DNA of 64,000 bases. Origin: a virus. Each line of letters starts with the position of its first letter. Position 1 is the stretch's first letter. Shown here piece by piece: positions 1,189 through 44,326 of the stretch. A program made the translations under genes and the position numbers. Where the stretch lies: positions 1-64,000 of IMG/VR virus record IMGVR_UViG_3300046028_006919, one strand, 5' to 3'. Under the pieces are notes generated by a model, which was not told where the DNA came from, did not search any database, and saw nothing but the letters and a program-made list of their open reading frames with translations.

Positions 1189-1282
1189 TTATCAGGACAG
1201 GACTTGAACCTGCAAGGTATTAGAAGCAGACTAATACCATACGACAAACGCCGTACTCGTTTACCAATTTCGCCACCTGACA
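1189..1282 (-). ncRNA. tRNA-like RNA, Leu-type shell, non-canonical anticodon arm and long variable arm
   Basis: Acceptor TGTCAGG/CCTGATA, D-loop GCGAAATTGGTAAACG, T-arm GCAGG-TTCAAGT-CCTGT, variable hairpin GGTATTAG/CTAATACC. The anticodon-position hairpin GTACGGC-GTTT-GTCGTAT has no 7-nt loop. Confidence 0.7.
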
Positions 1283-1405
1283 AATTTAAGAAGCTTGGTT
1301 ACCCTCTTTGACCGTTTAGCAGGTTGAAGCTGTTTCCTTATAAATCCTCAGCGATGCACCGCCACAAGAAACTGGGGAAACGTTGTTTCTACTTGTTTAA
1401 TTTAT

Positions 1406-1657
1406 TCACCTTATAGCAATTCTTCCCAATGTTTTAAATGTTGGAATATTATCTTTTTTAATTTCTACCTCAACACATCTATTTTTTCTCCAATAGCGTT
1501 TATTTTTACCACAACTTGAACAACTCATAAAGAGTGTTGCAATCAAGAGTGCCAACCCAATGGTTGTAACTCGGTTTAATTTAATGGTTGTTATTGAATT
1601 GGCAACCCAAACAAATAATACAACGATAAAGAATTTATGCCATTTAATATTTTTCAT
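1406..1657 (-). CDS. Hypothetical membrane protein/lipoprotein
   Basis: Two hydrophobic stretches, LFMSC lipobox-like motif, own promoter. Confidence 0.5.
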   Translation of the reverse strand: MKNIKWHKFFIVVLFVWVANSITTIKLNRVTTIGLALLIATLFMSCSSCGKNKRYWRKNRCVEVEIKKDNIPTFKTLGRIAIR

Positions 1658-1736
1658 AATCTAAAGGTTTATTAGGTTAATAGTGGTGCAAATGTATAAC
1701 AATTAATTTACACCACCAAAAAAAGTTATTAACAAT

Positions 1737-2135
1737 TTATTTAAGACTTTCAGCACATTCCAAAAGTTCCTCATAAGTGAATAAATTTAATCGTTTTACT
1801 CTTTCTTTTAACCTATCCACGTTTTCGGGACTTACTGCAATAGCATCGTGAATACTTTGCATACGTTTCCATTCTTCGTTGGTTAGTGTTCCAACAACTT
1901 CGGGTTTAAATATTCCATGTTGTTCGTTGTCATTTTCTTCAAGCATATCATCAATACCTTTATACACCGCAAACTTGGGTTCAATCATGTTTTTACCCGC
2001 AACACACATATTGCCATTGAGGTCAAGATATTGACAGTTAGTACTATCTTTGTCATAACCGCAAGTGCTTGGGTTTTTCAAATAAGGTGCTAATTGTGAT
2101 AATGCAAATTCTTTTATTTCTTCGGGTGTTTTCAT
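1737..2135 (-). CDS. Hypothetical protein
   Basis: 132-aa ORF. Confidence 0.7.
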   Translation of the reverse strand: MKTPEEIKEFALSQLAPYLKNPSTCGYDKDSTNCQYLDLNGNMCVAGKNMIEPKFAVYKGIDDMLEENDNEQHGIFKPEVVGTLTNEEWKRMQSIHDAIAVSPENVDRLKERVKRLNLFTYEELLECAESLK

Positions 2136-2351
2136 AGTGGTTTAATTTATTGGGTTTTCAACAATATCAAAAGCATAATTTAATGAATAAGAATAAAGTT
2201 GTGCATCTTCCAACGTGTGGAAACTCTTAACCTCATTTAAAAATACTCCATCGTCTGTACATGAAAAGTAAGGGATAACTGTGTAGATTGTTTTCATACT
2301 AATTTAATTTATTGGTTAAACATGGTGCAAAGATATAACAATTATTTTACA

Positions 2352-2702
2352 CTACCAAATATTTTTTCTTTTTAAATAATCTTTTTTTTCTTTTCGTTGT
2401 TTAAGATTTATTTCAGAATACATACCACTTAACACTCTTTGCAATTCTTGGTTAGGAATAAGACAAGTATCAAAGTTTGGGTGCAACATAATAAATTTAT
2501 TCAGTTGTTCTCCATAGTAACCAAACTCATGTGTTGGTTCACCACTTTCAATCGTTTCTATTGTGCCATTATCAAACGCTTGGATATATTCCATTAGCTT
2601 AGGGATATCTTGGCTTAAATCGATTAATTCAATAGGGTTGCCACCAAAATACTCATAGATTGGTGGCAATAAGTTAGAATATTGTTCGTTGTGGTATCTC
2701 AT
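2352..2702 (-). CDS. Hypothetical protein
   Basis: 116-aa ORF. Confidence 0.65.
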   Translation of the reverse strand: MRYHNEQYSNLLPPIYEYFGGNPIELIDLSQDIPKLMEYIQAFDNGTIETIESGEPTHEFGYYGEQLNKFIMLHPNFDTCLIPNQELQRVLSGMYSEINLKQRKEKKDYLKRKNIW

Positions 2703-2729
2703 TTAATTTATTGTGTTATATACGCGTAT

Positions 2730-2746
2730 GACACAAAAGTGTACAC
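2730..2746. repeat. Palindromic intergenic motif (G/T)ACACAAA(A/T)GTGTAC, copy 1 of 6
   Basis: GACACAAAAGTGTACAC; other copies at 8859, 12593, 18670, 22091, 22835. Confidence 0.8.
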
Positions 2747-2750
2747 TTGG

Positions 2751-3215
2751 TTAAAATATTTTTACGTATTGTCCTTGTTCCATTAAATAAACAATATCTT
2801 TTAATTTATCGTTTAAATAAATATCGTTTATATTTAAAGGAATTGAAATAACAACTCTGTTTAAATTATTGGGGCGACTGACAAAATTATCCGTATCTTT
2901 TGACCATTCTTTGTATTTCTCAAATACAACCCCAAGTGGTTTTTTATTACCCGAATAATACCCCAAACAATGTGCGTTGAAAAATAATGCGTTTTTATCA
3001 GCTATAATAGTAAATGCATTATAATAATTTGATGAGAAACTTGTTTTCATATAGATAACAACTCTATCACATTCATCTTGTACTTTATCATACGTTCTAA
3101 AGACCTTGCTCAAATTATTTAAAATTCTCATTGCAAAAGCCTTGTTATCTTTGATAGCGTTAATCTCATTTAATTTATCGCTATCCATAGCGTTTAAGAA
3201 TAAATTGTCAGTCAT
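2751..3215 (-). CDS. Hypothetical protein
   Basis: 154-aa ORF with own promoter. Confidence 0.7.
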   Translation of the reverse strand: MTDNLFLNAMDSDKLNEINAIKDNKAFAMRILNNLSKVFRTYDKVQDECDRVVIYMKTSFSSNYYNAFTIIADKNALFFNAHCLGYYSGNKKPLGVVFEKYKEWSKDTDNFVSRPNNLNRVVISIPLNINDIYLNDKLKDIVYLMEQGQYVKIF

Positions 3216-3287
3216 AATAAATTTATTTAATTTGTTGGTACAAAGATATAACTATTTTTTAAACTACCAAACTTTTTTACATTTATT

Positions 3288-3785
3288 TTACAATCTTAAC
3301 CCAAACCCTATTGTTGCTTGGCTAAAGCTATCAAAACCTAATATAATTCTAAGTCTATTATTGACTTGATAGCCAATAAATCCACCAACCATAACTGTAT
3401 ATGATGTAGTTTGTTTTTCTTGGGTGTTTGGGTTGTTTTGTGTTGGTACCCATTTAGCCTCATTTTGTTTGCCAATTCTACCACCGTAAATAAATTTATT
3501 GGGTTTATACCCATAAGACAAATACAATGTTTCATTTTTATATTGTTCATCTTTGTATTGGTTCACATTCCCAGCATAACCAATTCCAATTATACTCTTG
3601 TTTAATTTAATGGTTACTTCACCACCCAACGATTGTAGTATTCCAAGATTAACAACCAAAGTAAATTTACTTTCTTTTGGTAATTGGTTATATGGATTGT
3701 CATAATCAATATCCATTGGTGGTTTTGGTTGTCCAAAAGAAATGGTACAAACAAACAAACTTAAAACTAATAATAATTTTTTCAT
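3288..3785 (-). CDS. Putative small outer-membrane beta-barrel protein
   Basis: Signal peptide MKKLLLVLSLFVCTISFG, alternating Gly/aromatic beta-strands, C-terminal ...IGFGLRL. Confidence 0.5.
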   Translation of the reverse strand: MKKLLLVLSLFVCTISFGQPKPPMDIDYDNPYNQLPKESKFTLVVNLGILQSLGGEVTIKLNKSIIGIGYAGNVNQYKDEQYKNETLYLSYGYKPNKFIYGGRIGKQNEAKWVPTQNNPNTQEKQTTSYTVMVGGFIGYQVNNRLRIILGFDSFSQATIGFGLRL

Positions 3786-3792
3786 AGGTCAT

Positions 3793-4080
3793 TTAATTAA
3801 TTAACAGATTAAACTTGCCATACATAAAAATATCAGCAAGGGTTACTTTATCTTCGTCAGTAAATTTACTCAAACGATATTCAAGTATTACTTTTCTAAA
3901 GTTCTTTGCAATTATTTTATGGTTGCCCGATAACTCATAAGTAAATCGTTGCGTTCCATTATTTTCTATTGCAATATATGTTGGGTTTGGTGCGGATTTA
4001 TATTTTAAATAAATATTAAAAGTGCTACCCTCATTGGCTCTTTCTTCGTTTAATTCAATATCTTCAAGTATCAAATGCAT
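3793..4080 (-). CDS. Hypothetical protein
   Basis: 95-aa ORF. Confidence 0.55.
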   Translation of the reverse strand: MHLILEDIELNEERANEGSTFNIYLKYKSAPNPTYIAIENNGTQRFTYELSGNHKIIAKNFRKVILEYRLSKFTDEDKVTLADIFMYGKFNLLIN

Positions 4081-4295
4081 AGGTTATATAAATATTAAAA
4101 TTAAAATACATAAACATATAGCGACAAAAATATATGCCATTACATTTTTTTTCTTTTTTATTATTGTAATAGGTTCATCACCCATTTCATTAGCGGTATA
4201 CGAATAATGTTTTTTCATAATTTAATTAATTTAACAATGCAAAGATAAGAATAAAAATCGGTACTACCAAATGATAATACCGATTTTAAATAAAT

Positions 4296-4871
4296 TTATT
4301 TACTCAACTCTACCAACTTCAACTCAAATTCTTCAAGCGTTGGTATTGTTGGTTGCACTCCAATTTTGTAATGGGTTGCAACCATGTTTTTGATGTGTTC
4401 GCCACAACCTTTGAAGTTTTCAACAACCAACTGCAAGTCTAATAATTTTTGTTCGTCAACTGAAAGCAACTCCCAAACCTTGAAATTTTCACCATACATT
4501 TTTTTAAGGTCGTCGCTTTCCAACATAGCCATACAAATAGCACGTTTTTGTTCTTCGTTGGTAAAATCTAATTTATTACCCATTTTTTCAAACCCCAAAT
4601 CCTTGATTTTGTTTTTTAAGTTAGAAAGGGAGTCAACCTCTAAACCATCAAAAATTAAATCTTCGGTATCGTTAACGTCCCAATCATCGATTGAAATAAT
4701 ACCTTTGTGTTTGATTTCAGAAACTCTTGCATAAAAGCAAATAACCATACTGAAATTACCACGCTCAATCTTAACACTACCACTAAATTCAATTTGTGTG
4801 TGAGTTGACCTTGAAGTTGCTTTAACTTCTCCCTCAAGTCCTTTAAGACTTTGTAAAATACCTAGTTCCAT
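4296..4871 (-). CDS. Hypothetical protein
   Basis: 191-aa ORF with own promoter and downstream hairpin. Confidence 0.75.
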   Translation of the reverse strand: MELGILQSLKGLEGEVKATSRSTHTQIEFSGSVKIERGNFSMVICFYARVSEIKHKGIISIDDWDVNDTEDLIFDGLEVDSLSNLKNKIKDLGFEKMGNKLDFTNEEQKRAICMAMLESDDLKKMYGENFKVWELLSVDEQKLLDLQLVVENFKGCGEHIKNMVATHYKIGVQPTIPTLEEFELKLVELSK

Positions 4872-5249
4872 AATAATATAAATTTAATTGATTAATTCTC
4901 TGCAAATGTATAACAATTTTTTAACCTACCAAATAATAAAGTGTTAAAATTTTGTTAAAAGTAAATTGGGGCAAATAAATTTATCCACCCCAATTTCAGT
5001 ACCATAATTATATGGGGTCAGTCTTTTATCTTATTTTCAGCTATGAATACTCCATATCCCTCGGGATACCCTCACAGAACAACTGATTAACAAATAAATT
5101 TATTTGCATAAGATAATGCCTACATTGCCGACAAGCAAGGATTTTAATTAGTTCCGCAAGGGGAAACAAAACAACTATGTATTTTAAAACCCATTTAATT
5201 TATTGGGTTAGTATTTTATGTTTTTAATTACTATGCAAAGATATAACTT

Positions 5250-5654
5250 TTAATTTACACCACCAAATAATTCTTTCTCTTTTTCTAAATTTTCTTTGTG
5301 TTCTCTTAATAAATTTATTTGGTCTTCAAGCCGTTTGATTTCATCATCGATTGAAGTGATTGCATAAAATTTATGTTCAAGTTTATAACGATTTATCATA
5401 ACATCTTTCAACCTATTAAGTTCTTTGTTATATGTTGAGTAAACATCAAACATATTCAAAGAATGCATCACAGTTGCGTGATTAAATCCAACACTACCAC
5501 CAATGGCGCCAAATGTTGTATTTGGTTTAAGTATCTTGACAACCTTATAAAACAACCCACGCATTTCAATTACTTCACGTTTTTTTGTTTTAATATTAAT
5601 ATCGATACCACTTTCATTTATTAATATATCTTTAATTATTTCAATATCGCTCAT
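5250..5654 (-). CDS. DnaA C-terminal-like HTH protein with coiled-coil tail
   Basis: KKREVIEMRGLF...TFGAIGGSVGFNHATVMHSL resembles the Bac_DnaA_C DHSTVIHA signature. Confidence 0.6.
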   Translation of the reverse strand: MSDIEIIKDILINESGIDINIKTKKREVIEMRGLFYKVVKILKPNTTFGAIGGSVGFNHATVMHSLNMFDVYSTYNKELNRLKDVMINRYKLEHKFYAITSIDDEIKRLEDQINLLREHKENLEKEKELFGGVN

Positions 5655-5954
5655 AGTCGTTTAATTTATTAAGATTGGATTTTCAGTTCCCTCAACCCAA
5701 CCTTTTAATTTTTTCCACTTGTTGATTAACTTAGTTCCGTTTACAACATCATCTTTGGTTAAAAACTCTTTAAAGAAAATAAATTTAACTGTTATTTCAA
5801 TTGTTTTAATTTCTAATTCTATTTTTGTTGGTTTCATAATTCAAATAATTATATTGGGTTAAACATAGGTCAAAGATATAACATTTAATTTACACTACCA
5901 AACTTTTTTTTAAAAAAATGGTATCACCCAAAAAATGAGTGATACCAAGTAAAT

Positions 5955-6704
5955 TTATTCAGTAAATGTTTCATTATATATTCCCAATAACTGTACCTTG
6001 AACGTTTTTTCGTCAGCTGAAAATTCGTTTTGTTTATTGTTTGCAAATTGAATAATTGCATTAGCCAATTTCTTATAGTCATTGGTTTGTTTCATTACTC
6101 TCCAAGCACTTCTACGTGTAAAAGAATGTTTTGGCAAATGCTTTAATAAACGCTTAACTTGTTCAAATTTTTTGTCGCTTTCTTTTTCGTCTTTGAATGT
6201 TAAATTACCCAACTGAAAATCCTTTGTTGTACCACTACCTGTATATAAAAATAACAAGTCAGTAATAGTCAATTTGGTTTCGTCCATTAGTTGTTTGAAT
6301 TTAACATACTCTTTAACGTTACTAGCAACGTATATTTCCAAATACATTATGTTAGTCCAACGTTTTAACTTGTTATTCAAACATGAAATAAAATGCTTAA
6401 CGTTTTCTTTCGTATCGTCATTTAATTTAATCACCTTTAAATCCAAAGGTAAATTCAATAACCTTGCCGATGTACTTCTGTGATTTCCATCAGCATTTAT
6501 TCTAATCTTTTCACCAAATGCTTCTGTTTCAAGTATGATAACAGTCGTTGCTTCTGCCCCATACATTGCCATGCTTTCCATGATTTCTTTAACGTGGTCA
6601 TCATCAACTTTTCTTGACACTCCTTCAAGTATCGTGTACTTTTTATAATCGAATGTTTGTTTTTGTTCCTCGATTACTCTTGCTAAATTTTTAATTTCTG
6701 TCAT
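5955..6704 (-). CDS. ParB/Srx-like N-terminal domain protein
   Basis: R-x-VDDDHVKEIMESM...INADGNHR (DGxHR motif). Confidence 0.55.
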   Translation of the reverse strand: MTEIKNLARVIEEQKQTFDYKKYTILEGVSRKVDDDHVKEIMESMAMYGAEATTVIILETEAFGEKIRINADGNHRSTSARLLNLPLDLKVIKLNDDTKENVKHFISCLNNKLKRWTNIMYLEIYVASNVKEYVKFKQLMDETKLTITDLLFLYTGSGTTKDFQLGNLTFKDEKESDKKFEQVKRLLKHLPKHSFTRRSAWRVMKQTNDYKKLANAIIQFANNKQNEFSADEKTFKVQLLGIYNETFTE

Positions 6705-6723
6705 TTTAAATTAGTTTAATTGA

Positions 6724-7182
6724 TTAATACTTCTGCAAAGATATAACAATTTTTTAACCCACCAAATTATTTTACAATTATTTTACAAAAAAAATTCGCA
6801 CCCCTTTAAGAATGCGAACTAATGTATATTTATTCAATTAATCTAACAACGTGTAATATTCGTCGGGATAAAGTTTTCTGAATAAATTTAACGATAAACT
6901 CATTTTATCGTATAACCCCATTGCCTCACAACCTATCACATAATCGTAAAGGGCAACCCCTTGTGAGTCTAACTCACAACTAAAACCACTATAAGGGTTT
7001 TTAATCGTTTGTTTCTCTGTGCTTTCTCGGTTAAAACTTAATTGACTAATTAAGTTAGTTTCTGTCTTGTTTAATTTAACTTTTGTTGCCATAACTGAAA
7101 TATTTAATTGGTTAATACTTCTGCAAAGATATAACAATTTTTTAACCCACCAAATTATTTTACAATTATTTTACAAAAAAAA
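6724..7182. repeat. ~70-bp identical direct repeat (6724-6794 and 7112-7182) consisting of the promoter module
   Basis: TTAATACTTCTGCAAAGATATAACAATTTTTTAACCCACCAAATTATTTTACAATTATTTTACAAAAAAA is present twice, flanking ORF 6838-7092. Confidence 0.85.
6838..7092 (-). CDS. Hypothetical protein (start corrected to MATKV)
   Basis: ATG downstream of promoter. Confidence 0.65.
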   Translation of the reverse strand: MATKVKLNKTETNLISQLSFNRESTEKQTIKNPYSGFSCELDSQGVALYDYVIGCEAMGLYDKMSLSLNLFRKLYPDEYYTLLD

Positions 7183-7239
7183 ATCCGCACCTATAAAAGA
7201 TACGGATTTTCAGCTGTGTTGTTCAGCGGGTAGTTTAAT

Positions 7240-7479
7240 TTAATCACCACTATCTACACTATAAACTACTTTGTAGATAGTATCTTCGATATTAACATCA
7301 AATGAATACTCATTGTAACAACGACCTAAATTTTTAGACTCTTGTGATTGAGGTATCATTTGTTCTCTTAACTCTTTACAGAATTGATTTGTTTTTACAC
7401 CCCAACCATTTGCCGTACCCAAACTGATAACGTTGTTTACCGCTTTTTCTTTTACTTGTTCTGCTAATGTGTTTTCCAT
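7240..7479 (-). CDS. Hypothetical protein (start corrected to MENTL)
   Basis: ATG downstream of promoter; terminator hairpin at ~7176-7210. Confidence 0.65.
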   Translation of the reverse strand: MENTLAEQVKEKAVNNVISLGTANGWGVKTNQFCKELREQMIPQSQESKNLGRCYNEYSFDVNIEDTIYKVVYSVDSGD

Positions 7480-7558
7480 AACTGATATATTTAATTGGTT
7501 AATACTTCTGCAAAGATATAACAATTTTTTAAACCACCAAACTTTTTTTAAATTATTT

Positions 7559-7801
7559 TTATTCATTACCAAATACTTCTTCATCGCATTCAGAACAAAT
7601 TGGACCAAAACCAAATATGGTTGTTTCAGCTTCTGCACCGCATATACATAATTCAGGTTCGTCCTCTTCCTCTGTCGGGTTAAAGGTTACTTCATTATCA
7701 ATAGTAAAGTCAGCACCACAATCATCACAACATAACATTGTTTCGGGGAAATCAAAATCTTCTCGGATATTTGTTCCTATACAAATTGGGCAAGTTTCCA
7801 T
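7559..7801 (-). CDS. Small acidic Cys-rich (double Zn-ribbon-like) protein
   Basis: CPIC, CCDDC, CIC and CSEC motifs. Confidence 0.6.
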   Translation of the reverse strand: METCPICIGTNIREDFDFPETMLCCDDCGADFTIDNEVTFNPTEEEDEPELCICGAEAETTIFGFGPICSECDEEVFGNE

Positions 7802-7813
7802 AAGTCATTTAAT

Positions 7814-8065
7814 TTATAATGCAATTAACCAATCCGTTACTTCCCAATTAACGCTCGATGAAACGCTATACCCTTTTTCTCTTAATCGTTGAGCAACGAT
7901 AGGCATATACATATATTCTTCAACACTCCAACCATAAACGGGTGCTTTGGAACAAGTTTCAAATTTTGTGGTTAATCTGCCATCTTCAAATCGGTCTTCA
8001 ATTTGTTTCTGCAAAGTAGCAATATATTGTTCTTTGCGTTCTTGTGGTGTCAACGTAGTTTCCAT
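7814..8065 (-). CDS. Hypothetical protein (start corrected to METTL)
   Basis: ATG downstream of promoter. Confidence 0.65.
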   Translation of the reverse strand: METTLTPQERKEQYIATLQKQIEDRFEDGRLTTKFETCSKAPVYGWSVEEYMYMPIVAQRLREKGYSVSSSVNWEVTDWLIAL

Positions 8066-8135
8066 AACTGATATATTTAATTGGTTTAACGATGCAAAGA
8101 TATAACAATTATTTAAACCACCAAACAATATTGTG

Positions 8136-8498
8136 TTAAATATTATAAGTTTCTTGCAATCTTGTTATCATCAACGCTTTGGCTTGGGTGTCAGTTAATT
8201 TACTTATAGTATGTTTAATTAAATCACATCTGTAATACTGCCCATCTTCATCAATAATCAATTGATAAGTTGAAGTTTTTATCAGCGGTATTTGTTTTTT
8301 TTGTAACTTTGCCGTATGTTTTGACTTGGCACGTTCTTGTGGGTTGTCAGTATCCGTACCCATGGTAATGTGTGCCTTGTTCGCTGCAATAACCCTTGTT
8401 GATACACCAAATTGGTCAGCAAGCATTTGGTCTGTGTAATGACGATTTGCTCTTATAAAAGTTCTAATCGCTTTGTTGTCATGTGTTTTGTTTTTCAT
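8136..8498 (-). CDS. HTH-containing protein
   Basis: TDQMLADQFGVSTRVI helix-turn-helix pattern. Confidence 0.5.
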   Translation of the reverse strand: MKNKTHDNKAIRTFIRANRHYTDQMLADQFGVSTRVIAANKAHITMGTDTDNPQERAKSKHTAKLQKKQIPLIKTSTYQLIIDEDGQYYRCDLIKHTISKLTDTQAKALMITRLQETYNI

Positions 8499-8723
8499 TT
8501 ATTAATAAATTTAATTAGTGTTATAATACAAAGCTACTAACTAATTTATTAAGATGCAATGTTTGGTAGTTAAATTTATTAGACTTATTTTAAAACGATT
8601 TAAGACACGATAATAAATTAAATGACTTATGATATCATTTAAATAGAAAAAGAGTACCTAAGCAAGCTTAAATACCCTTATCATTGTTTACCAATTAAAT
8701 TCAATTATGACAGATTGAATTTG

Positions 8724-8792
8724 TATCTACCGCAGGAGTCGAACCTGCGACCTCACTTGTTAGTGCGCTCTTCCCAACTGAGCTACGTAGAC
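8724..8792 (-). ncRNA. tRNA-like RNA with truncated anticodon arm
   Basis: GTCTACG-TA-GCTC-AGTTGGGAA-GAGC-G-CACT-AACA-AGTG-AGGTC-GCAGG-TTCGACT-CCTGC-GGTAGAT-A. D and T arms are canonical, but the anticodon arm has only a 4-bp stem and 4-nt loop. Confidence 0.75.
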
Positions 8793-8878
8793 CCTCGCCC
8801 AAAAGTTGTCGACTACTTTGAACTTGGTCCATTGGACCCATTTAATTTAACGCCCATAGACACAAAAGTGTACATAAG

Positions 8879-9082
8879 TTATCTTTTATGATATGCGTCT
8901 TGTCTAGCGGTCATTTGATTTAACCAACCTCGCCATTCAGGTTCTTGTTCTACTGACGGTTCAGGGTTTTCATAGCCTTCATCATTAACAATATCAGTTC
9001 CACATTCACAACGAATATACATTTCAATTTCTTTTGCATTTCCAAATTCGGTATGACAATTAATACAAGTAACTATATTCAT
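8879..9082 (-). CDS. Small Zn-ribbon-like protein (likely start MNIVTC)
   Basis: CINC...CEC motifs. Confidence 0.5.
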   Translation of the reverse strand: MNIVTCINCHTEFGNAKEIEMYIRCECGTDIVNDEGYENPEPSVEQEPEWRGWLNQMTARQDAYHKR

Positions 9083-9191
9083 ATCTTTAATAAGTTTATT
9101 TAAAAATGTTGATACCGACATTCCCTACTCGATTATCGGTGTTTAAGGGTTGCGTATACATAGCAGTCCGAACCCTCAACATATTTTGATA

Positions 9192-9436
9192 GTGCAAAGA
9201 TATGGTAAAGTTTTCACTCTACCAAATCTTTTACAACTTTTTTTTATGTGAACAGATACAATAAAATTAGTATGAAAGGTAATAGAATGTAAAACCCAAT
9301 TGGGTCAAATGGATGAAGTATTTTTTCTATTTCCTTATGTATGTTAATAAACATATTTTTCATAATTTTTGTTTCTTTTCTTGTGCAAAGATATGGTAAA
9401 GTTTTCACTCTACCAAATCTTTTACAACTTTTTTTT
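9192..9436. repeat. ~54-bp identical direct repeat (9192-9245 and 9383-9436), promoter module flanking a 39-aa hydrophobic ORF (9244-9363)
   Basis: GTGCAAAGATATGGTAAAGTTTTCACTCTACCAAATCTTTTACAACTTTTTTTT is present twice. Confidence 0.85.
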
Positions 9437-10130: not shown

Positions 10131-10227
10131 AATTATTTTTTATTTAATTGTTTAACTCTGCAAATATATAACAATTATTTCACCCTACCAAATTTATATT
10201 GAAATATTTTTGATAGGGTAAATAAAT

Positions 10228-10884: not shown

Positions 10885-10895
10885 TGTTATTTAAT

Positions 10896-13883: not shown

Positions 13884-13888
13884 AATTC

Positions 13889-34963: not shown

Positions 34964-34971
34964 ATTATTAT

Positions 34972-35442: not shown

Positions 35443-35671
35443 AATTTTAATTTTTATTATACAAAGATACTATTTTATTTTAAATTACAAAATTAATATC
35501 TATATTTTTTAAAAATATTTTCAGAATTTTTTGTTAATTTCACAATACCAGATAAAATTAATTCAATTATTTTTTGTTTTGTAACATAGCATACAACACA
35601 ATAGCTATTCTGTTTCTAAATTCAACTTTTGTTTTCATTTTGCTTATTTTAGTTATTAATTTAAAATACCG

Positions 35672-37097: not shown

Positions 37098-37157
37098 ATA
37101 TACAACTTATTTTTTAACTACCAAATTTTTTTTTAAAAAAATTGAGGGCCAATAAAA

Positions 37158-38318
37158 TTAGTCCTCAGGATTTTCTTCGTTAGCAACTGCCCACCATACA
37201 CAACCAACTGAAATCAATATAGTCATTATATAAACAAACCATAACTGACCAGATGTCGGCTCAAACGATAAGTAGTTAAAATCTTTGAATGATTTGTAGT
37301 GCCAGTGAGTGCTTATACCTTTCATATAAGCGTTGTAAAAGGCTTTCTCATCTTTAACTGGTGCTTCCATCAAATCTTCTCGAATGTCTATTAAAACTCG
37401 CTTATTATCGCACCATGAAAAAGGTTTAACCCATTCAATGTTACCTAAATTATCCAGACCAACGCAAACGATAATTTCATTCTGGTTCCCACCATCCCAA
37501 TACGCTTCTTGCTGGAACGCAGTACTGATATCTCGGTTCTTATAGAACAGTGTAAACACTTTTACTTTATATTTTCGACCATACGCACCATTTATATAAT
37601 CAAGGGTTTTAATGATTTTACCTTTTGATTTTGAATTTAAGTCTTTAATTCCGATAACACTAGATTGATAATTATAATCAACTACCTCTGGGTATTCATA
37701 TAAACCAGAAGTTTTGGCTTTTTCTTTTTCAATAGTTGGGTAATTAAACGCCGAGTGATTTGATTTTAAGATATTAGTAAAAGATTTAGTGTGTGTTGTT
37801 ATTATGGAAGTATTAATATCTCTATCCCAAAAAATTCTGTACATATCACCATCTTTACCACAACTACCACGATAATTAATATCTCGATTTAATTCAACAA
37901 ACTTAGGGTTAGATTTCCATTGTTTTATCAACGACTTGTACTTTGTTTCACTAATACTAATTTCGTTTCCATCAGAGTCAATCATAACATAATATTCTGA
38001 ATTGTAATCACAATAAGAACAATCATAATATACAGTATGTGTTGTTCTATGCTTACCAGTACCAGTGCTGTAGGTTCGACTACATGTTTTCTTAACCCAT
38101 GTTTGCCATGGCTCGTAATACCTAGCTTCGGTTACAATAAAACCGTTGTATTCCACATCTTCAAGTGTTATTGATTTCATTGTATAATACGATATAAGTA
38201 TAAACAACGCACTACCAGCAACTGGTATAAGAATTTCCCACCAAACTATTTTGTTTTTAAACAAAACCCATCCTATCACAGCGGCTAGGATGGGGATTAT
38301 AAGTGCATACCAAACCAT
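37158..38318 (-). CDS. Membrane protein (LemA-associated)
   Basis: Two N-terminal and one C-terminal TM segments; follows a LemA-like gene. Confidence 0.7.
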   Translation of the reverse strand: MVWYALIIPILAAVIGWVLFKNKIVWWEILIPVAGSALFILISYYTMKSITLEDVEYNGFIVTEARYYEPWQTWVKKTCSRTYSTGTGKHRTTHTVYYDCSYCDYNSEYYVMIDSDGNEISISETKYKSLIKQWKSNPKFVELNRDINYRGSCGKDGDMYRIFWDRDINTSIITTHTKSFTNILKSNHSAFNYPTIEKEKAKTSGLYEYPEVVDYNYQSSVIGIKDLNSKSKGKIIKTLDYINGAYGRKYKVKVFTLFYKNRDISTAFQQEAYWDGGNQNEIIVCVGLDNLGNIEWVKPFSWCDNKRVLIDIREDLMEAPVKDEKAFYNAYMKGISTHWHYKSFKDFNYLSFEPTSGQLWFVYIMTILISVGCVWWAVANEENPED

Positions 38319-38887
38319 TATAGGTCTAGTTTTATGTTATCGTCTTTTCCAGTTTTCATCACTTCTTCTGTAAGTGAAGATTTGATAGGTGTGTATTCCA
38401 ACTTGGTGCGTCCGTAAAAAACGTTATAGAACGAATTTGGAAACTTTTGTATCAAATTCTTGTGTTGTCTAACAACATCTTGCAGAACTTTTTCTTCGTT
38501 AAAGAACCCTTCACGTTGTGCTTCAACAGCACGTGATAAATCTTTATACAAGACACTAACTTCGGAATAATTTGCGTTTGGGTTAGATTCGGTTATCCAT
38601 TTCATAAACACACCCTCAGAGTCTTTACGACCTTCCATGATGATGTTAATGTTTTTTCTGAATGATTCATCATTCTTAACAGCAATTTGAGATTTCTGAG
38701 AAATCACTTTGTACATTTTATCGTAGAATGAAGTTCTTTCATCTATTTTTTGTTCAAAGGTATTTCTTAAGTCAATTTCATTGTTTGAAAACGAGATAAA
38801 GTTACCGATGAATACGAACAACATAATTACACCTAATCCAATTAGACCAAATTTGATTAATGTACCGTTACTGAATTTGTTTTCCAT
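38318..38887 (-). CDS. LemA-like protein
   Basis: N-terminal TM anchor, helical body, ESNPNANYS...LYKDL...FPNSFY. Confidence 0.55.
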   Translation of the reverse strand: MENKFSNGTLIKFGLIGLGVIMLFVFIGNFISFSNNEIDLRNTFEQKIDERTSFYDKMYKVISQKSQIAVKNDESFRKNINIIMEGRKDSEGVFMKWITESNPNANYSEVSVLYKDLSRAVEAQREGFFNEEKVLQDVVRQHKNLIQKFPNSFYNVFYGRTKLEYTPIKSSLTEEVMKTGKDDNIKLDL

Positions 38888-39245
38888 TTTGTGTGTTTTT
38901 AAAGTTTTTAAATTAGATTGCAAATATACATATAATAATATTAATGTACAAATTTTTTATTGATTATTTTTTCTTTTTTTCTCTGAGTCGTAATAATGCT
39001 TGTTGATTGTTATCTTTGGGAATCCATGTAACATAATTGCAACACCAACAAAACACAAGGCAATTCCACCTAACGCATATAATGTTTCCATAATTAATCT
39101 TGTATAAAATTAAAAATAAATATAATACCAATTAATACCGTTAATATTAAAGGTATTAATATTTCTTGACTATGAATAACACTAGATAAACATACGCCAA
39201 ACGCGATGCCCCACATAAAATTTTTAAATTTTTCTAGTTTCATAA

Positions 39246-39872
39246 TTATTTCTTTTTATTAATTATAGATTCGGTTTGTTGTTTAAACGTTTTTACAACC
39301 GCGCTAATTTTACGACAATCTTCATCGGTAAAATTATCCCCACCACCTAATAAATCTTTGATAGTTCTATCTGATAATTTAACATAAATGTTTCTAACTT
39401 CATTCAAATCAATCATCGCTCGTTGTAGAGCAGTTGCTGGAAAATCTTGTTTTTTGACGTCTTCTAGAATTTTTTCTTTACCATAACGTCTAGGTAAAGT
39501 TTTTTCTTTTTTAGTTTTTTCGACGATAACTGTTTTTTCGGGTGCTACTTCTACTTTTACTTCTGTTTCTAACTTTGAAGAATAGTTTTCCCCTAATTTT
39601 TTAGAAACAAACCCAGAATTCTGTAAGTGTTGGTATCTTTCAGATAAACCTACCCCAGTTGAAATAAGTTTATCAAAAATTTCAAATATAACTTGTTTTG
39701 TTTCACTACTTACCGTGTCCCCACCATCTTTAATTAAAAGATACAACATATTAAAAGGTGTTTTAACCTTTTCTTCAAAAATTTCTTTTAACATATCATC
39801 AGTTTCAATAACATATAATGAAACCAATTCGTCAAATTTTAAATCAGCAACTTTTTCAAATGTAATACTCAT
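39246..39872 (-). CDS. Hypothetical protein
   Basis: 208-aa ORF with promoter. Confidence 0.7.
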   Translation of the reverse strand: MSITFEKVADLKFDELVSLYVIETDDMLKEIFEEKVKTPFNMLYLLIKDGGDTVSSETKQVIFEIFDKLISTGVGLSERYQHLQNSGFVSKKLGENYSSKLETEVKVEVAPEKTVIVEKTKKEKTLPRRYGKEKILEDVKKQDFPATALQRAMIDLNEVRNIYVKLSDRTIKDLLGGGDNFTDEDCRKISAVVKTFKQQTESIINKKK

Positions 39873-39987
39873 AATTTTTAATTTTTAATTATTGAGACAA
39901 ATATACAACTTATTATTACAACTACCAAATATTTTTAGTTTTTTTTTATAAAATAAAAAAACCCCGATAAAATCGAGGTTTAATTTG

Positions 39988-40434
39988 TTAGTTATATGCT
40001 TGCGGGTTATCAACTACTTTACCCATTGCCGTTACTTTACTAAGCTTTGGGTGCCTTGTTTTACCATCAGCGTCTGGTTTACCAGATATTTCTTTTGCTG
40101 TAATCGACCTATCTGATGCGCTATCAGCGTTACACTTATGTTCGCCACACATAGCACCAGAGGCATCCATTACTTGTGATAACTTAAGAATTCTATTAGA
40201 ACCTTGTGTTGAATTTTTAATTTTAGTTGAAAGAGTTTTTACTTTTTTCTTTTCCCCAGCATTTAATTCTTCATAATCTTTATCCTCAGATGGTTCATCT
40301 TCTTTAGAATTATCCGTGGAAGATTTGTCTTTAGAGTCTTTTTTACTCTCAGAGTTTTTTCCAACTTCACGTATTCTAGACAATAAATCCTCTCTTACTA
40401 ATTGTTTTATAAAATTTTTATTCATGATATTCAC
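39988..40434 (-). CDS. Hypothetical charged protein (class II promoter)
   Basis: ATATTTAT at 40443-40450; terminator at ~39955-39981. Confidence 0.65.
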   Translation of the reverse strand: MNIMNKNFIKQLVREDLLSRIREVGKNSESKKDSKDKSSTDNSKEDEPSEDKDYEELNAGEKKKVKTLSTKIKNSTQGSNRILKLSQVMDASGAMCGEHKCNADSASDRSITAKEISGKPDADGKTRHPKLSKVTAMGKVVDNPQAYN

Positions 40435-40469
40435 ATTTATATATAAATATCACAAAAACCTTAAAAATA

Positions 40470-41342
40470 TTAACTTTGAGCAATTAATTGAATTCTTTTT
40501 ATTTGGCTCATTTGTATTAGTGATTTAGTTTTCACTTGTCTTACCATCTCTCTAGTCAAACCAATTTCATTACCAACTTCTTGTAATGTCATTGGTTGAT
40601 AACCATTCATACCAAAAAGCATTTCCATTATTTTTTTGTTTCTTGGTTTAAGTGTTGATAAAGCACTGTTAATTTCTGATTTAACATCAGACTCACCCAA
40701 TAAATAATCAGTTTTATCATCGTTTTCATCACACATTAAATCAGATATGCTAACACCAGAACCTTCATCAGTTCCAACTTCACGGTCCATGGATTCAATT
40801 GAAAAACAATTTAACGAGTCCAATAGAACGAATTCATCAGCTGACATTTCTTTCGAAAATTGATTGATTACTTCTTCAATATCAGCTTTATAACAATTTT
40901 TTTGTTCAACAGCTGAAACATACTTATTTAATTTAGATAGCTCGTTTACACGATTTGCTGGAATACGAACACTTTTACCGTAGTTGGAAACAAACTCCAT
41001 TATAAGTTTTCTAACCCACCAAACAGCAAATGAAATAAATTTATAACCCTTGGTTGGGTCAAATTTCTCAACAGCTTTGATTAAACCGATGTTTCCTTCA
41101 TTTACCAAGTCTTCCAAGCTTATTTTATCAGTAGCGTATTGTTTGGCAACAGAAATAACAAAACGTAAATTTCTAGTGACCAATTCATCAGCTGCTGATT
41201 TGTCACCTTTTACAGCTTTTTCAGCCAAGTCATATTCTTCTTTAGGAGAAAGCAAAGGTATTTCATTAACCTCTCTTAAATATTGTTTAAATGATGAGAT
41301 TTCTCTGCTAGTAATTTTTTGATTGATTCTAAGTGTTTTCAT
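40470..41342 (-). CDS. rpoD: RNA polymerase sigma factor, RpoD/SigA family (Bacteroidota-like, no region 1.1)
   Basis: Region 2 NLRFVISVAKQY...DLVNEGNIGLIKAVEKFDPTKGYKFISFAVWW; region 4 MTLQEVGNEIGLTREMVRQ. Confidence 0.92.
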   Translation of the reverse strand: MKTLRINQKITSREISSFKQYLREVNEIPLLSPKEEYDLAEKAVKGDKSAADELVTRNLRFVISVAKQYATDKISLEDLVNEGNIGLIKAVEKFDPTKGYKFISFAVWWVRKLIMEFVSNYGKSVRIPANRVNELSKLNKYVSAVEQKNCYKADIEEVINQFSKEMSADEFVLLDSLNCFSIESMDREVGTDEGSGVSISDLMCDENDDKTDYLLGESDVKSEINSALSTLKPRNKKIMEMLFGMNGYQPMTLQEVGNEIGLTREMVRQVKTKSLIQMSQIKRIQLIAQS

Positions 41343-41391
41343 AGATTTGGGTTTAAATGTTTATTTATTGGGCAAATATAATACTTATTTT

Positions 41392-41853
41392 TTATTCCCC
41401 AAAACTTTTTTTCAATATTTTTTTCATATCTCTATCTAAATCTTTTTCTTTTATAGCTATAGATTTGTCTCTCACGTTTTTACCTTTGGCTAAACCCACA
41501 ACAATTTTTATAAGACCTTTGTCGTTTAGAACTATATTCAACGGGATTATGGTAAGTCCCTTCTCACCAACTTTTTGTTGTAACCTTTCAATTTCAACTT
41601 TTTTAGCTAAAAGCTTTCTATCTCTATTGGTGTTGTGAACATAATTATTGATACCACCATTGTGTGGTGCCACATACATTCCTTTTATAAACAACTCACC
41701 TTCTAAGATATAACAGTAAGCTTCACTAATCGATGTTCTAGAATCCTTTATTGGTCTTATTTCAGAGCCATGTAGTTGAACACCACACGATAATGTGTCT
41801 AATATTTGGTATTCGTAATAAGCTTTACGATTTGAAATTAAAATTTTATCCAT
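41392..41853 (-). CDS. smpB: SsrA-binding protein SmpB
   Basis: NRKAYYEY...GVQLHGSEI...RDRKLLAKK.EI...GLTIIPL...GLAKGK..RDK..IKEKD. Confidence 0.92.
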   Translation of the reverse strand: MDKILISNRKAYYEYQILDTLSCGVQLHGSEIRPIKDSRTSISEAYCYILEGELFIKGMYVAPHNGGINNYVHNTNRDRKLLAKKVEIERLQQKVGEKGLTIIPLNIVLNDKGLIKIVVGLAKGKNVRDKSIAIKEKDLDRDMKKILKKSFGE

Positions 41854-41855
41854 GT

Positions 41856-42569
41856 CTAATTATTATTGTTAAGAACTATTTTTCTGGCTAACGCTTCACC
41901 ATTTTGAATTACCAGATACTCTTTACTAGTACCAAGGCAATCAATTGCTATGACGCTATTTGTCATATGCATTTCTCTAATTGTAGTATGACCAATCACA
42001 TAGGTAAAGCCTTTTACCATATCTTTTAACAACGATGGTATTCTAACCCAAATTGGTGATTGGGTTATATCGTCACCACTTCTGTCTAAGTTTTCACCAT
42101 ATTCAAATTTAAATGATTCCATACTTTCCATAAACTTTACGTTTACCGATTCTTCAATGTTGAATAAATCAATTTCGTTGTTTTCACACCATGTTTGAGT
42201 CAACCCAGCATGTGAGAAAATATACTCATCAAAAACATGACATATTTGTAAATGACCAGAAGTTAATGCTGGTTGCAACACTTCGTTTATATCCACAGCA
42301 GCATACTGCTGATAACCAGAATAAGTTTCACCACAACCCTTAAGATAATGAAAATCGTGGTTACCGATAATCAATATCACTTTGTCTGGATTTTCTTTCT
42401 TAAATGTTAATATTTCTTTGAAGTTTTTAATTTGTGTTGACGCGTCTATGTCTTCTCTAGAGTCGAAGTAATCACCCACAAAAATAAATTTGTCAAAGTC
42501 TTCTTCAACTTTGACAATTTTTTTCCATATATCACGACCATGTGTATCGCCTAGCGCAACAATTTTCAT
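41856..42569 (-). CDS. Metallophosphoesterase
   Basis: GDTHG, GDYFD, GNHD, HAG and GHT motifs. Confidence 0.88.
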   Translation of the reverse strand: MKIVALGDTHGRDIWKKIVKVEEDFDKFIFVGDYFDSREDIDASTQIKNFKEILTFKKENPDKVILIIGNHDFHYLKGCGETYSGYQQYAAVDINEVLQPALTSGHLQICHVFDEYIFSHAGLTQTWCENNEIDLFNIEESVNVKFMESMESFKFEYGENLDRSGDDITQSPIWVRIPSLLKDMVKGFTYVIGHTTIREMHMTNSVIAIDCLGTSKEYLVIQNGEALARKIVLNNNN

Positions 42570-42632
42570 ACTTAGTAATTTTATACAAATATACTAAATA
42601 AAATAATAAAAAGCAAATTTTTTTAGTTTTTT

Positions 42633-42809
42633 TTATGCGTATGACCAGTTAGATGAATCGTTGTGGTCATCTAGTTCACCATCATTATGATTGTTATTAT
42701 GATTGTGATGATTGTGATGATTTTCTTTAGGTTTACCACCAACAATGTTTTTAAATCTATTTCTGATTCGACTAGATTTTACAATTATATTTAAAAATTT
42801 CTTTTTCAT
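42633..42809 (-). CDS. 58-aa His/Asn-rich peptide with double-glycine leader-like N-terminus (absent from ORF track)
   Basis: MKKKFLNIIVKSSRIRNRFKNIVGG-KPKENHHNHHNHNNNHNDGELDDHNDSSNWSYA*, starting 4 nt after the glycosyltransferase stop. Confidence 0.55.
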   Translation of the reverse strand: MKKKFLNIIVKSSRIRNRFKNIVGGKPKENHHNHHNHNNNHNDGELDDHNDSSNWSYA

Positions 42810-42813
42810 TTTG

Positions 42814-43842
42814 TTAATTTTTTAATTTTATTAACCACTGTAGTTTGGCTTTTATGTTATATATGTTCAAATTAAAACTTTGTAACCATGTAATAACTCC
42901 TCTATATTTATATGCTAATTTTAATTTTCTAACAATACCCTTGTGTGATGTAGGTGACACCTTCATAATCCATGGCATCCAACTTATATCATCAGAAGCA
43001 ACTATTGGAACTTTAGCTGTTACAAAATCTGCTGTTACTATATTAAAAGATTCAGAAAAAGAAACTTGCATACCAATATCCATTTTAGATGCCGCTTCTA
43101 AAAATTCAGCATGTTTATACCATCTATGTTCAACTAACTCGTGTTTAGAATGTTCAAATAATGCTTGAATATTTCTTAACGCGTTGTCACCAGATTGTTC
43201 AGTTCTTGTTCCGTTGATATGAAATCTTAATGTTTTATCTATTTGTTCAGCAAACTCTATCGCAGCCATTGCTTGTTGATATGTATTTTTCATTGGTCTA
43301 ATAGCACCAAAAGAACCAATATCAACAAAGTCTTTGCTTTTCACATGTTTTTCAGGTGTGAATGGTTTCGCTTTATAAATGTTGGGTAAAAAAATAAACT
43401 TGCCTTCTGGAAAACAATAAGTTAATTGTTCTGTAAGTTCAGTTGTGTTAGGTGCTATCTCAATTTTTAACTCATTGATAGATGCGTATTGTTTTATCCA
43501 TCTAGTTGCAATACCTTCGTTGGCCAAAAATGGTGCTTTTGAATGTAGTCTAACTACCCATCTTCTATCCTTATGTCTTTGGATTTGAAATAATTCTTTG
43601 AACTTTGCTGGTGGAACCCAAATAGCTTCAATTACAACCACATCTGGGTTAAATTCAGTCACGACTTTATCAATAGAATTTGAGTCAGGCACTGGAGTTA
43701 TTTTAGCCTCAAAATCGTTTTCATTTAGATAATTAACAACAAAACTGGCAGAATTAAATAAGCCAGAAGTAACACCGTAATAATCTTTTACCTTGTCACA
43801 TGTTATAAATTGAATACGTTTTTTTGGGGTGATTTCTTTCAT
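42814..43842 (-). CDS. Glycosyltransferase (GT-B, GT4-like)
   Basis: IGSFGAIRPMKN...MDIGMQVSFSESFNIVTADFV..KVPIVAS. Confidence 0.75.
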   Translation of the reverse strand: MKEITPKKRIQFITCDKVKDYYGVTSGLFNSASFVVNYLNENDFEAKITPVPDSNSIDKVVTEFNPDVVVIEAIWVPPAKFKELFQIQRHKDRRWVVRLHSKAPFLANEGIATRWIKQYASINELKIEIAPNTTELTEQLTYCFPEGKFIFLPNIYKAKPFTPEKHVKSKDFVDIGSFGAIRPMKNTYQQAMAAIEFAEQIDKTLRFHINGTRTEQSGDNALRNIQALFEHSKHELVEHRWYKHAEFLEAASKMDIGMQVSFSESFNIVTADFVTAKVPIVASDDISWMPWIMKVSPTSHKGIVRKLKLAYKYRGVITWLQSFNLNIYNIKAKLQWLIKLKN

Positions 43843-43908
43843 CGAAGTTGTTTTATAATAAATATATAAAACAACCTAGAAATAATATTTTTTTTATGTT
43901 AATTTTTG

Positions 43909-44027
43909 TGCCGAGGACTGGATTCGAACCAGCAATAGTACCATACTCACCAACTTTCGTTGACTTCAAGGATTCGAACCTCATCTCCCGTTTTCAGACG
44001 GGTGGTTTACCATTTCCCCACCTCGGC
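43909..44027 (-). ncRNA. tRNA-like RNA with Leu-type shell and two T-arms
   Basis: Acceptor GCCGAGG/CCTCGGC-A; D-loop GGGAAATGGTAAACC; hairpin CCCGT-CTGAAA-ACGGG; internal GAGG-TTCGAAT-CCTT; hairpin TCAAC-GAAA-GTTGG; terminal GCTGG-TTCGAAT-CCAGT. Confidence 0.7.
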
Positions 44028-44197
44028 ATTTTGAGAGGAATAGACCCCTTCACCTCTCATTGATACACGTGTCACCTAGCGTTTATCATGTCCACTCCAA
44101 GGCTGTATCTTCTGCCTTTCTAAGTATCTGTGCTGACTAACATTTCGTTTCTTAGAATATACCAAGCAAGTGGCAGAGCAGTTTATTAAACTGATTG

Positions 44198-44326
44198 TAG
44201 TCAGAACAGGATTCGAACCTGTAACTGTGGATTTCCAAGCAGGACCTCGCATGGGCTTTTTTCATTCCACACCCACGATGAAGCTAGTACCTATCTTTTT
44301 GCGTCTACCAATTTCGCCACCTGACC
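44198..44326 (-). ncRNA. tRNA-like RNA with ~75-nt insert replacing the anticodon/variable arms
   Basis: GGTCAGG/TCTGACT-A; GCG-AAATTGGTAGA-CGC; ACAGG-TTCGAAT-CCTGT; 5' part nearly identical to 1189-1282. Confidence 0.7.

Follow-up and report, generated by a model that had tools for sequence, protein, structure and literature searches.

Four tRNA-shaped elements with abnormal middles

The DNA analysed here is a stretch of 64,000 nucleotides (nt), which we call the window and which makes up positions 1 to 64,000 of the IMG/VR virus record IMGVR_UViG_3300046028_006919. An original prediction, made from the letters alone, had seen in it four transfer RNA (tRNA)-shaped RNAs, each with a different abnormal middle instead of a canonical anticodon arm. 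In what follows G000 is the record holding the window, G001 is a complete relative of 362 kb, and L-numbers denote fetched phage contigs or loci. All four elements are present, and all lie on the minus strand, which is the gene strand:

1189–1282, minus strand: E1, a 94-nt tRNA-shaped RNA with a leucine (Leu)-type chassis (acceptor UGUCAGG/CCUGAUA) and A73
8724–8792, minus strand: E2, a tRNA-shaped RNA of class I, 69 nt long, whose body resembles tRNA-Val/Ile
43909–44027, minus strand: E3, a 119-nt tRNA-shaped RNA with seven helices
44198–44326, minus strand: E4, a 129-nt RNA with a Leu-type chassis (acceptor GGUCAGG/UCUGACU) and A73

Under the Rfam tRNA model RF00005, with its gathering threshold of 29 bits, E3 (43.0 bits), E2 (40.9) and E1 (31.0) all score above the cut-off. 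E4 is matched in its T arm only and stays below it (14.1 bits); its full 7-base-pair (bp) acceptor stem, Leu-type D arm and T arm are evident from direct reading, from minimum-energy folding and from its homolog. ARAGORN calls E1 at 1188–1282 as ‘tRNA-???’ with a 2-nt anticodon and force-fits E2. A chance origin is excluded because the Rfam E-values in the window are about 1e-5 and because homologs exist.

Each of the four has a 7-bp acceptor stem followed by an unpaired discriminator A, a 5-bp T stem closed by a 7-nt UUCRANU loop and the GG of the D-loop. The earlier statement that a paired acceptor stem is kept is accurate for E1, E3 and E4 but too generous to E2, whose stem carries one G/G mismatch and one G-U pair. 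A Leu-type D arm goes together with A73 in E1, E3 and E4, and the D stems of E1 and E3 are just 2–3 bp long. A 5-bp anticodon stem with a 7-nt loop (U33, purine at 37) is found in none of the four. In its place E1 has a 6–7-bp hairpin with a GUUU loop, accompanied by an 8-bp variable arm (z-score of the fold, −3.6), and the anticodon arm of E2 is shrunk to 4 bp with a 4-nt loop or, alternatively, to 3 bp with a 6-nt loop. In E3 the arm at the anticodon position has a 5-bp stem and the 6-nt loop CUGAAA, and three extra hairpins are added, so that its helices are the acceptor stem, the D arm, the anticodon-position hairpin, a second T-arm look-alike, a GAAA-capped hairpin, a 4-bp hairpin with a UGG loop, and the T arm. 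The middle of E4, about 78 nt, is a long irregular arm capped by an A-rich 14-nt loop and replaces both the anticodon and the variable arm. Minimum-energy folds recover the acceptor stem and the T arm in all four elements and reproduce the abnormal middles as they had been described.

A covarying family of seven-helix RNAs

Relatives of E3, located by a scan for two T-arm motifs 25–50 nt apart and then by BLAST, occur in four other phage contigs (L217, L216 with two copies, L219 and L160), giving a family of six members in five phage contigs. With a covariance model built here for this family (R1), E3 scores 127 bits and the other members 124, 120, 111, 76 and 54, as against at most 45 for generic tRNAs. 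The hallmarks of the family under R1 are seven helices, which include the second T-arm-like hairpin and a GAGUAUGGUACUAUUG hairpin. In the model-guided alignment 95.2% of the cells form standard pairs and 19 of the 28 pairs show double-sided changes, counts that are somewhat inflated since the model's own structure guided the fit of the alignment. None of 500 shuffles reached any of the pairing or covariation measures, and in a control with slid partners on the same alignment pairing falls to 38–53%. Covariation among the homologs, which had been named as a check, backs all seven helices in these six members, including the three that are foreign to tRNA, and decay spread over all arms, which would have spoken for broken tRNA genes, is not seen in the homologs of the elements. 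Many of the pairs on the minus strand are G-U, which speaks for a structure at the level of RNA and not of DNA.

The loops at the anticodon position of the family are 6, 7, about 8, 4 and 8 nt long and have no common sequence; with a variable length and an unconserved sequence, this arm is a structural one and not an anticodon. The 7-nt loop, in L217, has U at its position 2. Of five hits to an E3 motif, four were due to chance.

E4, its homolog and the Leu-type chassis family

The IMG/VR contig L124 holds a copy of E4 that is identical at 122 of 129 positions (95%), with the core 98% identical. Five of the seven differences fall inside the 14 acceptor nucleotides (hypergeometric P = 1.3e-4), and they keep every pair (U-A to A-U, C-G to G-C and G-U to A-U), amounting to two double compensations and one change of G-U to A-U. 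A further difference, the sixth, likewise turns a G-U pair of the long cargo arm into A-U.

The core of E4 (44206–44310) is also found in contigs of three metatranscriptome studies at 97–99% identity and a depth of up to 27.6. The insert is retained in these RNA-library contigs and no spliced joints were seen, while their flanks diverge from E4 exactly at the acceptor stem. A contig of a fourth study carries a 91% copy of the spacer X3, which lies between E4 and E3 in the window, and then a different tRNA-like 5' end. Parts of the locus left uncovered by contigs in four RNA runs were not counted either way. In one contig an adapter junction one base past the discriminator hints at a defined 3' end, although contigs cannot show ends as such. 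Outside these sources the insert of E4 has no match in metagenome contigs and, among 185,579 GTDB species genomes, nothing save two chance matches to its loop word, which sit in coding or unrelated DNA; blastn of the E3/E4 locus against GenBank phages gave no match. The loop itself (44250–44263) is the 14-nt GUGGAAUGAAAAAA, the same in L124 and in the RNA-library contigs. As a separate observation, genes in the related loci L074, L076, L077 and L078 open with the nine bases AUGAAAAAA, which also lie within this loop; genes of the window mostly start with ATGAAA.

The first 20 nt of E1 and E4 are identical, and their 3' ends are related. Starting at the E4 3' end we reached a family of 20 distinct elements in 10 contigs, E1 and E4 included, which come from loci fetched for other reasons. 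The chassis common to them consists of an acceptor xGUCAGG/CCUGACU (in looser form xGUCAGG/CCUGAyn), A73, a Leu-type D arm GGCGRAAUUGGUA and the T arm ACAGGUUCGAAUCCUGU ((A/G)CAGGUUCRAnUCCUGU), and the trailer is mostly CAA. The acceptor, D and T parts are near-identical across the 10 contigs, the middles are unrelated and range from 19 to 152 nt, and one record may contain up to six copies. ARAGORN makes no call for 11 of the 20, gives one (E1) a two-letter anticodon and assigns to the remaining eight inconsistent anticodons (Glu, Ser, Gln, Tyr, Leu, Ile). Neither E2 nor E3 falls into this family. The region of E1 has no match among GenBank phages.

The body of E2 has its best alignments with phage genes for tRNA-Val, -Ile and -Phe and is about 5 nt short in the anticodon arm; under RF00005, 11 model positions are replaced by 6 nt. 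It keeps the T loop, the GG, A73 and a CAA trailer, and sits in the same type of cassette as E1. Neither the context of E1 nor that of E2 has a counterpart in five relatives.

Transcription units and processing signals

Around the elements the following features can be delineated:

1106–1720, minus strand: E1 transcription unit, with a promoter (1689–1720), an open reading frame (ORF) of 83 amino acids (aa) at 1406–1657, a 123-nt spacer, E1 and an intrinsic terminator (1106–1129)
8650–9226, minus strand: E2 transcription unit, with a promoter (9195–9226), an 80-aa ORF (8879–9121), an 86-nt spacer, E2 and a terminator-like hairpin (8650–8679)
44488–44519, minus strand: promoter of the E4-E3 array, of the Bacteroidota type TTTG...TAtaTTTG
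44327–44487, minus strand: leader RNA ‘A’, ending in the hairpin AGAGGGG...CCUCUC, 1 nt before E4
44028–44197, minus strand: spacer RNA ‘X3’, between E4 and E3, with the end hairpin GAGAGG...CCUCUC, 5 nt before E3

The 83-aa and 80-aa ORFs of the first two units belong to no Pfam family. The promoter at 44488–44519 drives the non-coding E4-E3 array and probably also the 342-aa gene behind it; from this promoter down to 43842, ahead of that gene, there is no terminator-like site and no further promoter. An AT-rich hairpin, GUUGUUUUAUA...UAUAAAACAAC (43845–43875, minus strand), immediately precedes the start codon of the 342-aa gene. In G001 (L009) it is changed on both arms and can still pair (UCGUUUA/UAAACGA versus GUUGUUU/AAACAAC), and in L011 its end pairs are as in the window.

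In the true tRNA genes of this phage and G001 the CCA end is not encoded; C follows the discriminator directly in 50 of 54 genes, and the trailer is CAA in 25 of 54. All four elements E1–E4 carry the CAA trailer, which against a background frequency of 0.028 has a P of about 6e-7, and so they share the 3' context of genes that require trimming and CCA addition. G001 encodes a nucleotidyltransferase of the CCA-adding type.

The locus in related phages and its neighbours

The promoter-leader locus is kept in relatives with a differing number and kind of tRNA-like modules, alternating with spacers, and is absent from more distant ones. Leader ‘A’ is 93% identical in G001/L072 and 75% identical in L074–L076. 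Behind the 93%-identical leader, the module of G001 is entirely different from that of the window, which indicates that modules are exchanged at their boundaries. In G001 one leader-plus-module unit sits within a hairpin loop of an RNA that is continuous in L074–L076. This RNA is a promoter-driven leader of about 190 nt (‘A5’ + B'), continuous in three relatives (L074 4700–4890, L075/L076); in G001 (L009 2460–2846) a 165-nt leader-plus-tRNA-like unit interrupts it inside the 7-bp hairpin CUUAACC/GGUUAAG, and in the window its 3' half is replaced. The leader has no Rfam match. Two further modules in the orthologous locus of G001 are unusual. One (L009 2642–2734) has two T arms but lacks a D arm; the other (L009 2964–3040) is a 77-nt module of which only both ends match the model of transfer-messenger RNA (tmRNA), at 28.7 bits and below threshold.

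Two other identities were considered for the leaders and rejected. A group I intron was suggested by AGACUAGA motifs, taken as P7, and by ends of the form ...AAAAUG, taken as carrying an omega-G; however, there is no match to RF00028 at E ≤ 10, the AGACUAGA motifs are locus-specific single copies, and a promoter directly upstream leaves no 5' exon. A second RNA of ribonuclease P (RNase P) was rejected since the leaders bear no resemblance to G000 71980–72230, a segment beyond the window with CR-I- and CR-V-like strings recognised by eye (AGAGGAAGUUCGCG ... ACAGAAUCGCGGCUAAGC) that itself has no match to the RNase P RNA model RF00010 at E ≤ 1.

The E3/E4 locus is surrounded by an RNA-turnover neighbourhood. 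An RNB-family (RNase II/R-like) exoribonuclease of 666 aa is encoded at 46037–48628 of the window, and the genes beside it encode a HAD_SAK_1 (‘Swiss Army Knife RNA repair’) domain protein, a pair of metallophosphoesterases and a sigma-70 factor. One ORF of the G001 locus is a weak match to SegE_GIY-YIG (E 0.007, below the cut-off), and the ORF beside the E4 homolog in L124 has no Pfam family.

The phage, its tRNA genes and its host

The record is 76,474 bp long and 22% complete by CheckV, and the window is its first part. The size class of the phage is about 360 kb. The complete relative G001 was reached via a 94%-identical protein, along with other relatives. The window has about 32% G+C and carries nearly all its genes on the minus strand. 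Its part from 29 to 64 kb is collinear with 272–342 kb of G001, and its first 29 kb, a hypervariable block, consist of small genes of which few have counterparts there. The segment 25000–29230 contains no ORF of at least 100 aa in the standard code, with TAG read as Gln or in code 4; it holds many paralogous ORFs of 60–95 aa with counterparts 32–52% identical at 269–271 kb of G001, and the idea of a large non-coding region at 25–29 kb was dropped in favour of such an array. An alternative genetic code was also rejected, since neither TAG=Q nor code 4 opens new frames; the genes of the window are read through in the standard code.

A pattern scan of the window finds the motif TTTG-N15-23-TAnnTTTG 55 times against 10 expected, almost always on the minus strand. 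This is the Bacteroidota type of promoter, which points to a freshwater Bacteroidota as the probable host; the stretch is contained in DNA runs of lake-water metagenomes. A longer form of the promoter, TTTGGTAGTGTAAAATAATTGTTATATCTTTG, which hardly varies, occurs in about 35 copies on the minus strand between 229 and 21930, roughly one ahead of each small gene in the hypervariable first 22 kb. These copies look like a single regulatory class, probably of early genes.

That no normal tRNA occurs in the window, as originally noted, is borne out by ARAGORN and Rfam, but the same record has a normal cluster at 72–75.3 kb, 8–11 kb past the window (Gly, Thr, Tyr, Gln, Gly, Pro, Lys). Relatives have about 50 tRNA genes, with a tail of low-scoring matches. 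In G001 the class I isoacceptors Asp, Ile, His, Met, Thr and Val are each represented by a normal gene of 72–75 nt and a twin of 80–88 nt that bears a long extra arm (L050–L068; for example 6502–6588/6594–6668, 35765–35849/35856–35930, 36120–36208/36908–36982 and 57057–57145/57870–57943). G000 has a tRNA-Pro(UGG) of 87 nt at 75141–75228, and a tRNA with the anticodon CUA lies at 44350–44423 of G001.

Proposed role and alternative explanations

What, then, could be the role of these RNAs? At least three of the elements belong to conserved phage RNA families and so appear to be selected look-alikes and not broken tRNA genes. We incline, if only slightly, to the view that E1, E3, E4 and possibly E2 are selected non-decoding tRNA-shaped RNA genes, which would be excised like tRNAs and would serve as scaffolds for cargo. 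The original claim of selected mimics as opposed to pseudogenes is upheld in this respect by the covariation of E3, by the acceptor swaps and RNA-library copies of E4 and by the chassis membership of E1, and does not carry over to E2, which lacks a homolog. Among the functions that had been offered, a scaffold for cargo and punctuation for RNase P and RNase Z fit the anatomy and the context best, and a decoy for anticodon nucleases fits worst, because the elements lack the anticodon loop or stem, which is what enzymes of the PrrC, VapC, colicin and OLD types read (PMC10264068, PMC12445682).

Going beyond the observed shape, covarying conservation, family membership, flanking signals and presence in RNA libraries, we infer from anatomy and context a course of processing, the stability of the product and a working role for the cargo. 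Promoters of the Bacteroidota type would transcribe the elements jointly with adjacent genes or non-coding spacers. RNase P, for which a 7-bp acceptor stem is a major determinant, would then cut the 5' end, and 3' trimming with CCA addition would complete the 3' end. The outcome would be stable tRNA-sized RNAs that present the variable middle as cargo, in effect a natural tRNA scaffold. The same cuts would split the transcript, and the hairpins upstream of E3 and E4 may cap and protect the 3' ends released in this way.

Several points weigh against this scheme. The E3 family is small, and its alignment was fitted to the structure that it supports. E1 has no direct homolog in viral contigs or in the other collections searched, and E2 has none in metagenome contigs or any collection searched; the latter, with its imperfect acceptor stem, is possibly a recently decayed tRNA-Val/Ile-like gene. 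The RNA-library contigs show presence and not mature ends, CCA tails, strand or abundance, and the libraries may contain DNA. No RNase P RNA was matched by RF00010 at E ≤ 1 in G000 or G001. Leader ‘A’ and spacer ‘X3’ give no thermodynamic (folding-energy) signal, and the idea of released upstream RNAs is thereby weakly based. Finally, a mere processing signal would not need a conserved cargo, but a conserved cargo does not tell how it acts.

One alternative is that the shell and not the middle is the working part. The RNAs would then be decoys or competitors for proteins that grip the acceptor and elbow (host tRNA-targeting defence nucleases or transferases, aminoacyl-tRNA synthetases, EF-Tu, processing enzymes), with a middle that varies only to avoid cutting or reading. 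Such a role would agree with chassis acceptor, D and T parts kept nearly letter for letter in 10 contigs around unrelated middles, with a repertoire that differs among close relatives as in an arms race, with neighbours of the RNA-turnover and repair type (the RNB exoribonuclease, HAD_SAK_1 and the metallophosphoesterases) and with the fact that nucleases acting on the tRNA anticodon loop or stem are known phage defences (PMC10264068, PMC12445682). We nevertheless consider it unlikely, as the known anticodon nucleases need the loop or stem that is absent here, no partner protein was identified, and individual middles are conserved (98% for the E4 core in L124, covarying extra helices in E3), which a free-floating middle would not predict. 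That the elements are nothing but RNase P/RNase Z cleavage signals in polycistronic transcripts, with a jobless excised piece, is quite unlikely in our opinion. Their placement would suit it, with E1 and E2 between an ORF and a terminator and E4 and E3 flanked by non-coding spacers upstream of a gene, and so would the hairpins 1–5 nt upstream of E4 and E3, which could cap released upstream RNAs, and the alternation of spacers and tRNA-like modules in related loci. Yet a minimal acceptor/T minihelix would suffice for cleavage and the elaborate middles are conserved, the spacers carry no structural signal, and cutting at E1 or E2 would merely take the terminator off a monocistronic mRNA.

Turnover of the large tRNA set of the phage could also leave decaying pseudogenes, to which the roughly 50 tRNA genes of relatives with their low-scoring tail, the position of E1 and E2 in a hypervariable region without counterpart in the complete G001, and the Val/Ile-like body of E2, short of about 5 nt in the anticodon arm and with a single mismatch in the acceptor, would all be suited. 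This is a live explanation for E2 only and an improbable one for the set, given the compensatory evolution and family conservation of E3 and E4, the occurrence of the E1/E4 chassis in many phages, and damage confined in all four to a single arm, with acceptor stem, T loop, GG and CAA trailer intact. Very improbable, on the anatomy at hand, is a use as aminoacyl carriers charged by a synthetase that ignores the anticodon, which for an A73 Leu-type chassis would be leucyl-tRNA synthetase, and acting as donors in a non-ribosomal reaction. Leucyl-tRNA synthetase does not read the anticodon, and E1, E3 and E4 combine A73 with a Leu-type D arm; a precedent exists in phage Mom, which uses charged Gly-tRNA-Gly for DNA modification (PMC13219725). 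Against this, a class Ia (leucyl-tRNA synthetase-type) gene is present in neither G000 nor G001, no candidate transferase was identified, E2 is not Leu-like, and the variable but individually conserved middles would be left unexplained. It is hardly credible, lastly, that the elements decode after all, through splicing of the inserts or through unusual 6- or 8-nt loops in a frameshift type of decoding. With introns of 0–3000 nt allowed, ARAGORN restores no canonical anticodon arm; E3 alone can be drawn, as tRNA-Phe(GAA) with a 30-nt intron, and one could also point to the 7-nt loop with U at position 2 in L217. But the ‘intron’ of E3 leaves just three anticodon-stem pairs and deletes covarying helices, there is no intron solution for E1, E2 or E4, the loops of the E3 family range from 4 to 8 nt, the E4 insert stays unspliced in the RNA-library contigs and the window genes are read in the standard code. 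Intron-bearing tRNAs, which the original prediction had named as a finding that would speak against it, were rejected on these grounds.

Under the preferred reading of non-decoding scaffolds, a single phage carries three designs at once, two of which represent conserved families, namely a Leu-type chassis that stays constant and comes in several copies per phage, and a seven-helix RNA with two T arms. It is conceivable, but on balance we doubt it, that jumbo phages of fresh water possess a natural expression system of the tRNA-scaffold type, in which tRNA-processing enzymes recognise the almost invariant chassis and exchangeable aptamer-like or decoy cargo serves in phage-host conflict; in such a system one dedicated partner would perhaps read the AGUCAGG acceptor, and cassettes would be swapped exactly at the tRNA boundaries. 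If the RNAs are indeed excised and stable, their cargo domains would represent a pool of small structured RNAs. Current annotation would then be wrong, because tRNA finders miss these genes or assign arbitrary anticodons to them, and phage tRNA counts and inferences on codon use or code changes would be distorted.

Comparison with known RNAs

To our knowledge, only scattered cases of tRNA look-alikes that do not decode have been described, namely T4 rnaC, Y RNAs, tmRNA and the tRNA-like 3' ends of viruses. We found no paper describing an RNA family of the present kind, no Rfam family and no match in GenBank phages. The closest natural case is rnaC of T4 (species 1 RNA, 139 nt), which with rnaD is a small stable phage RNA beside tRNA genes (tRNA-Arg), where the T4 tRNA cluster ends. 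It has a perfect T arm CCGGGUUCGAAUCCCGG and an acceptor-like stem and lacks an anticodon arm, and the T4 cluster contains the GIY-YIG homing endonuclease gene segB; the GIY-YIG match in the G001 locus is only weak and below the cut-off. However, there is no sequence similarity, only the generic T arm being common; rnaC is without a D arm and a Leu-type chassis and is a single copy with no family of swapped middles, and rnaD is without a T arm. T4 rnaC is not known to have a function.

The tRNA-like domain of tmRNA is the upper half of a tRNA without the anticodon, processed by RNase P and charged. In the elements we recognised no reading frame for a tag flanked by pseudoknots, and the window gave neither an ARAGORN call for tmRNA nor a match to RF00023 at E ≤ 1. 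In mitochondrial transcripts and in the mascRNA of MALAT1, embedded tRNA-shaped elements are cut sites for RNase P and RNase Z; those systems are eukaryotic or organellar, whereas the tRNA-like pieces described here bear conserved extra domains.

Phage tRNAs with an altered anticodon loop or stem evade host tRNases (PMC10264068, PMC12445682), but they are still decoding tRNAs in which the loop has 7 nt and single base pairs are changed, unlike the present elements, which have no usable anticodon arm. The Y RNA YrlA is non-decoding, has a tRNA-like module of acceptor, D and T arms and is found in phages too, and in the case of the M. smegmatis form RNase P cleaves the RNA and CCA is added (PMC4201824). 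It needs, however, the Ro60 (TROVE) partner, and its RNA ends form the Ro-binding stem, while here the ends are the acceptor stem itself; there is no TROVE gene in G000 or G001 and no match to a Rfam Y RNA.

The design of the elements is identical to that of the engineered tRNA scaffold of Ponchon and Dardel (PMC3753655), in which the acceptor, T and D arms are retained and a foreign insert replaces the anticodon stem-loop. Such chimeras are processed by the tRNA enzymes and stable in E. coli, degradation being prevented (PMC3753655). The engineered scaffold is man-made, on human tRNA-Lys3 or E. coli tRNAs, and a natural use of the same design is what we propose here. If these RNAs are excised and stable as suggested, phages would have arrived by evolution at the device with which RNA biochemists express foreign RNA.

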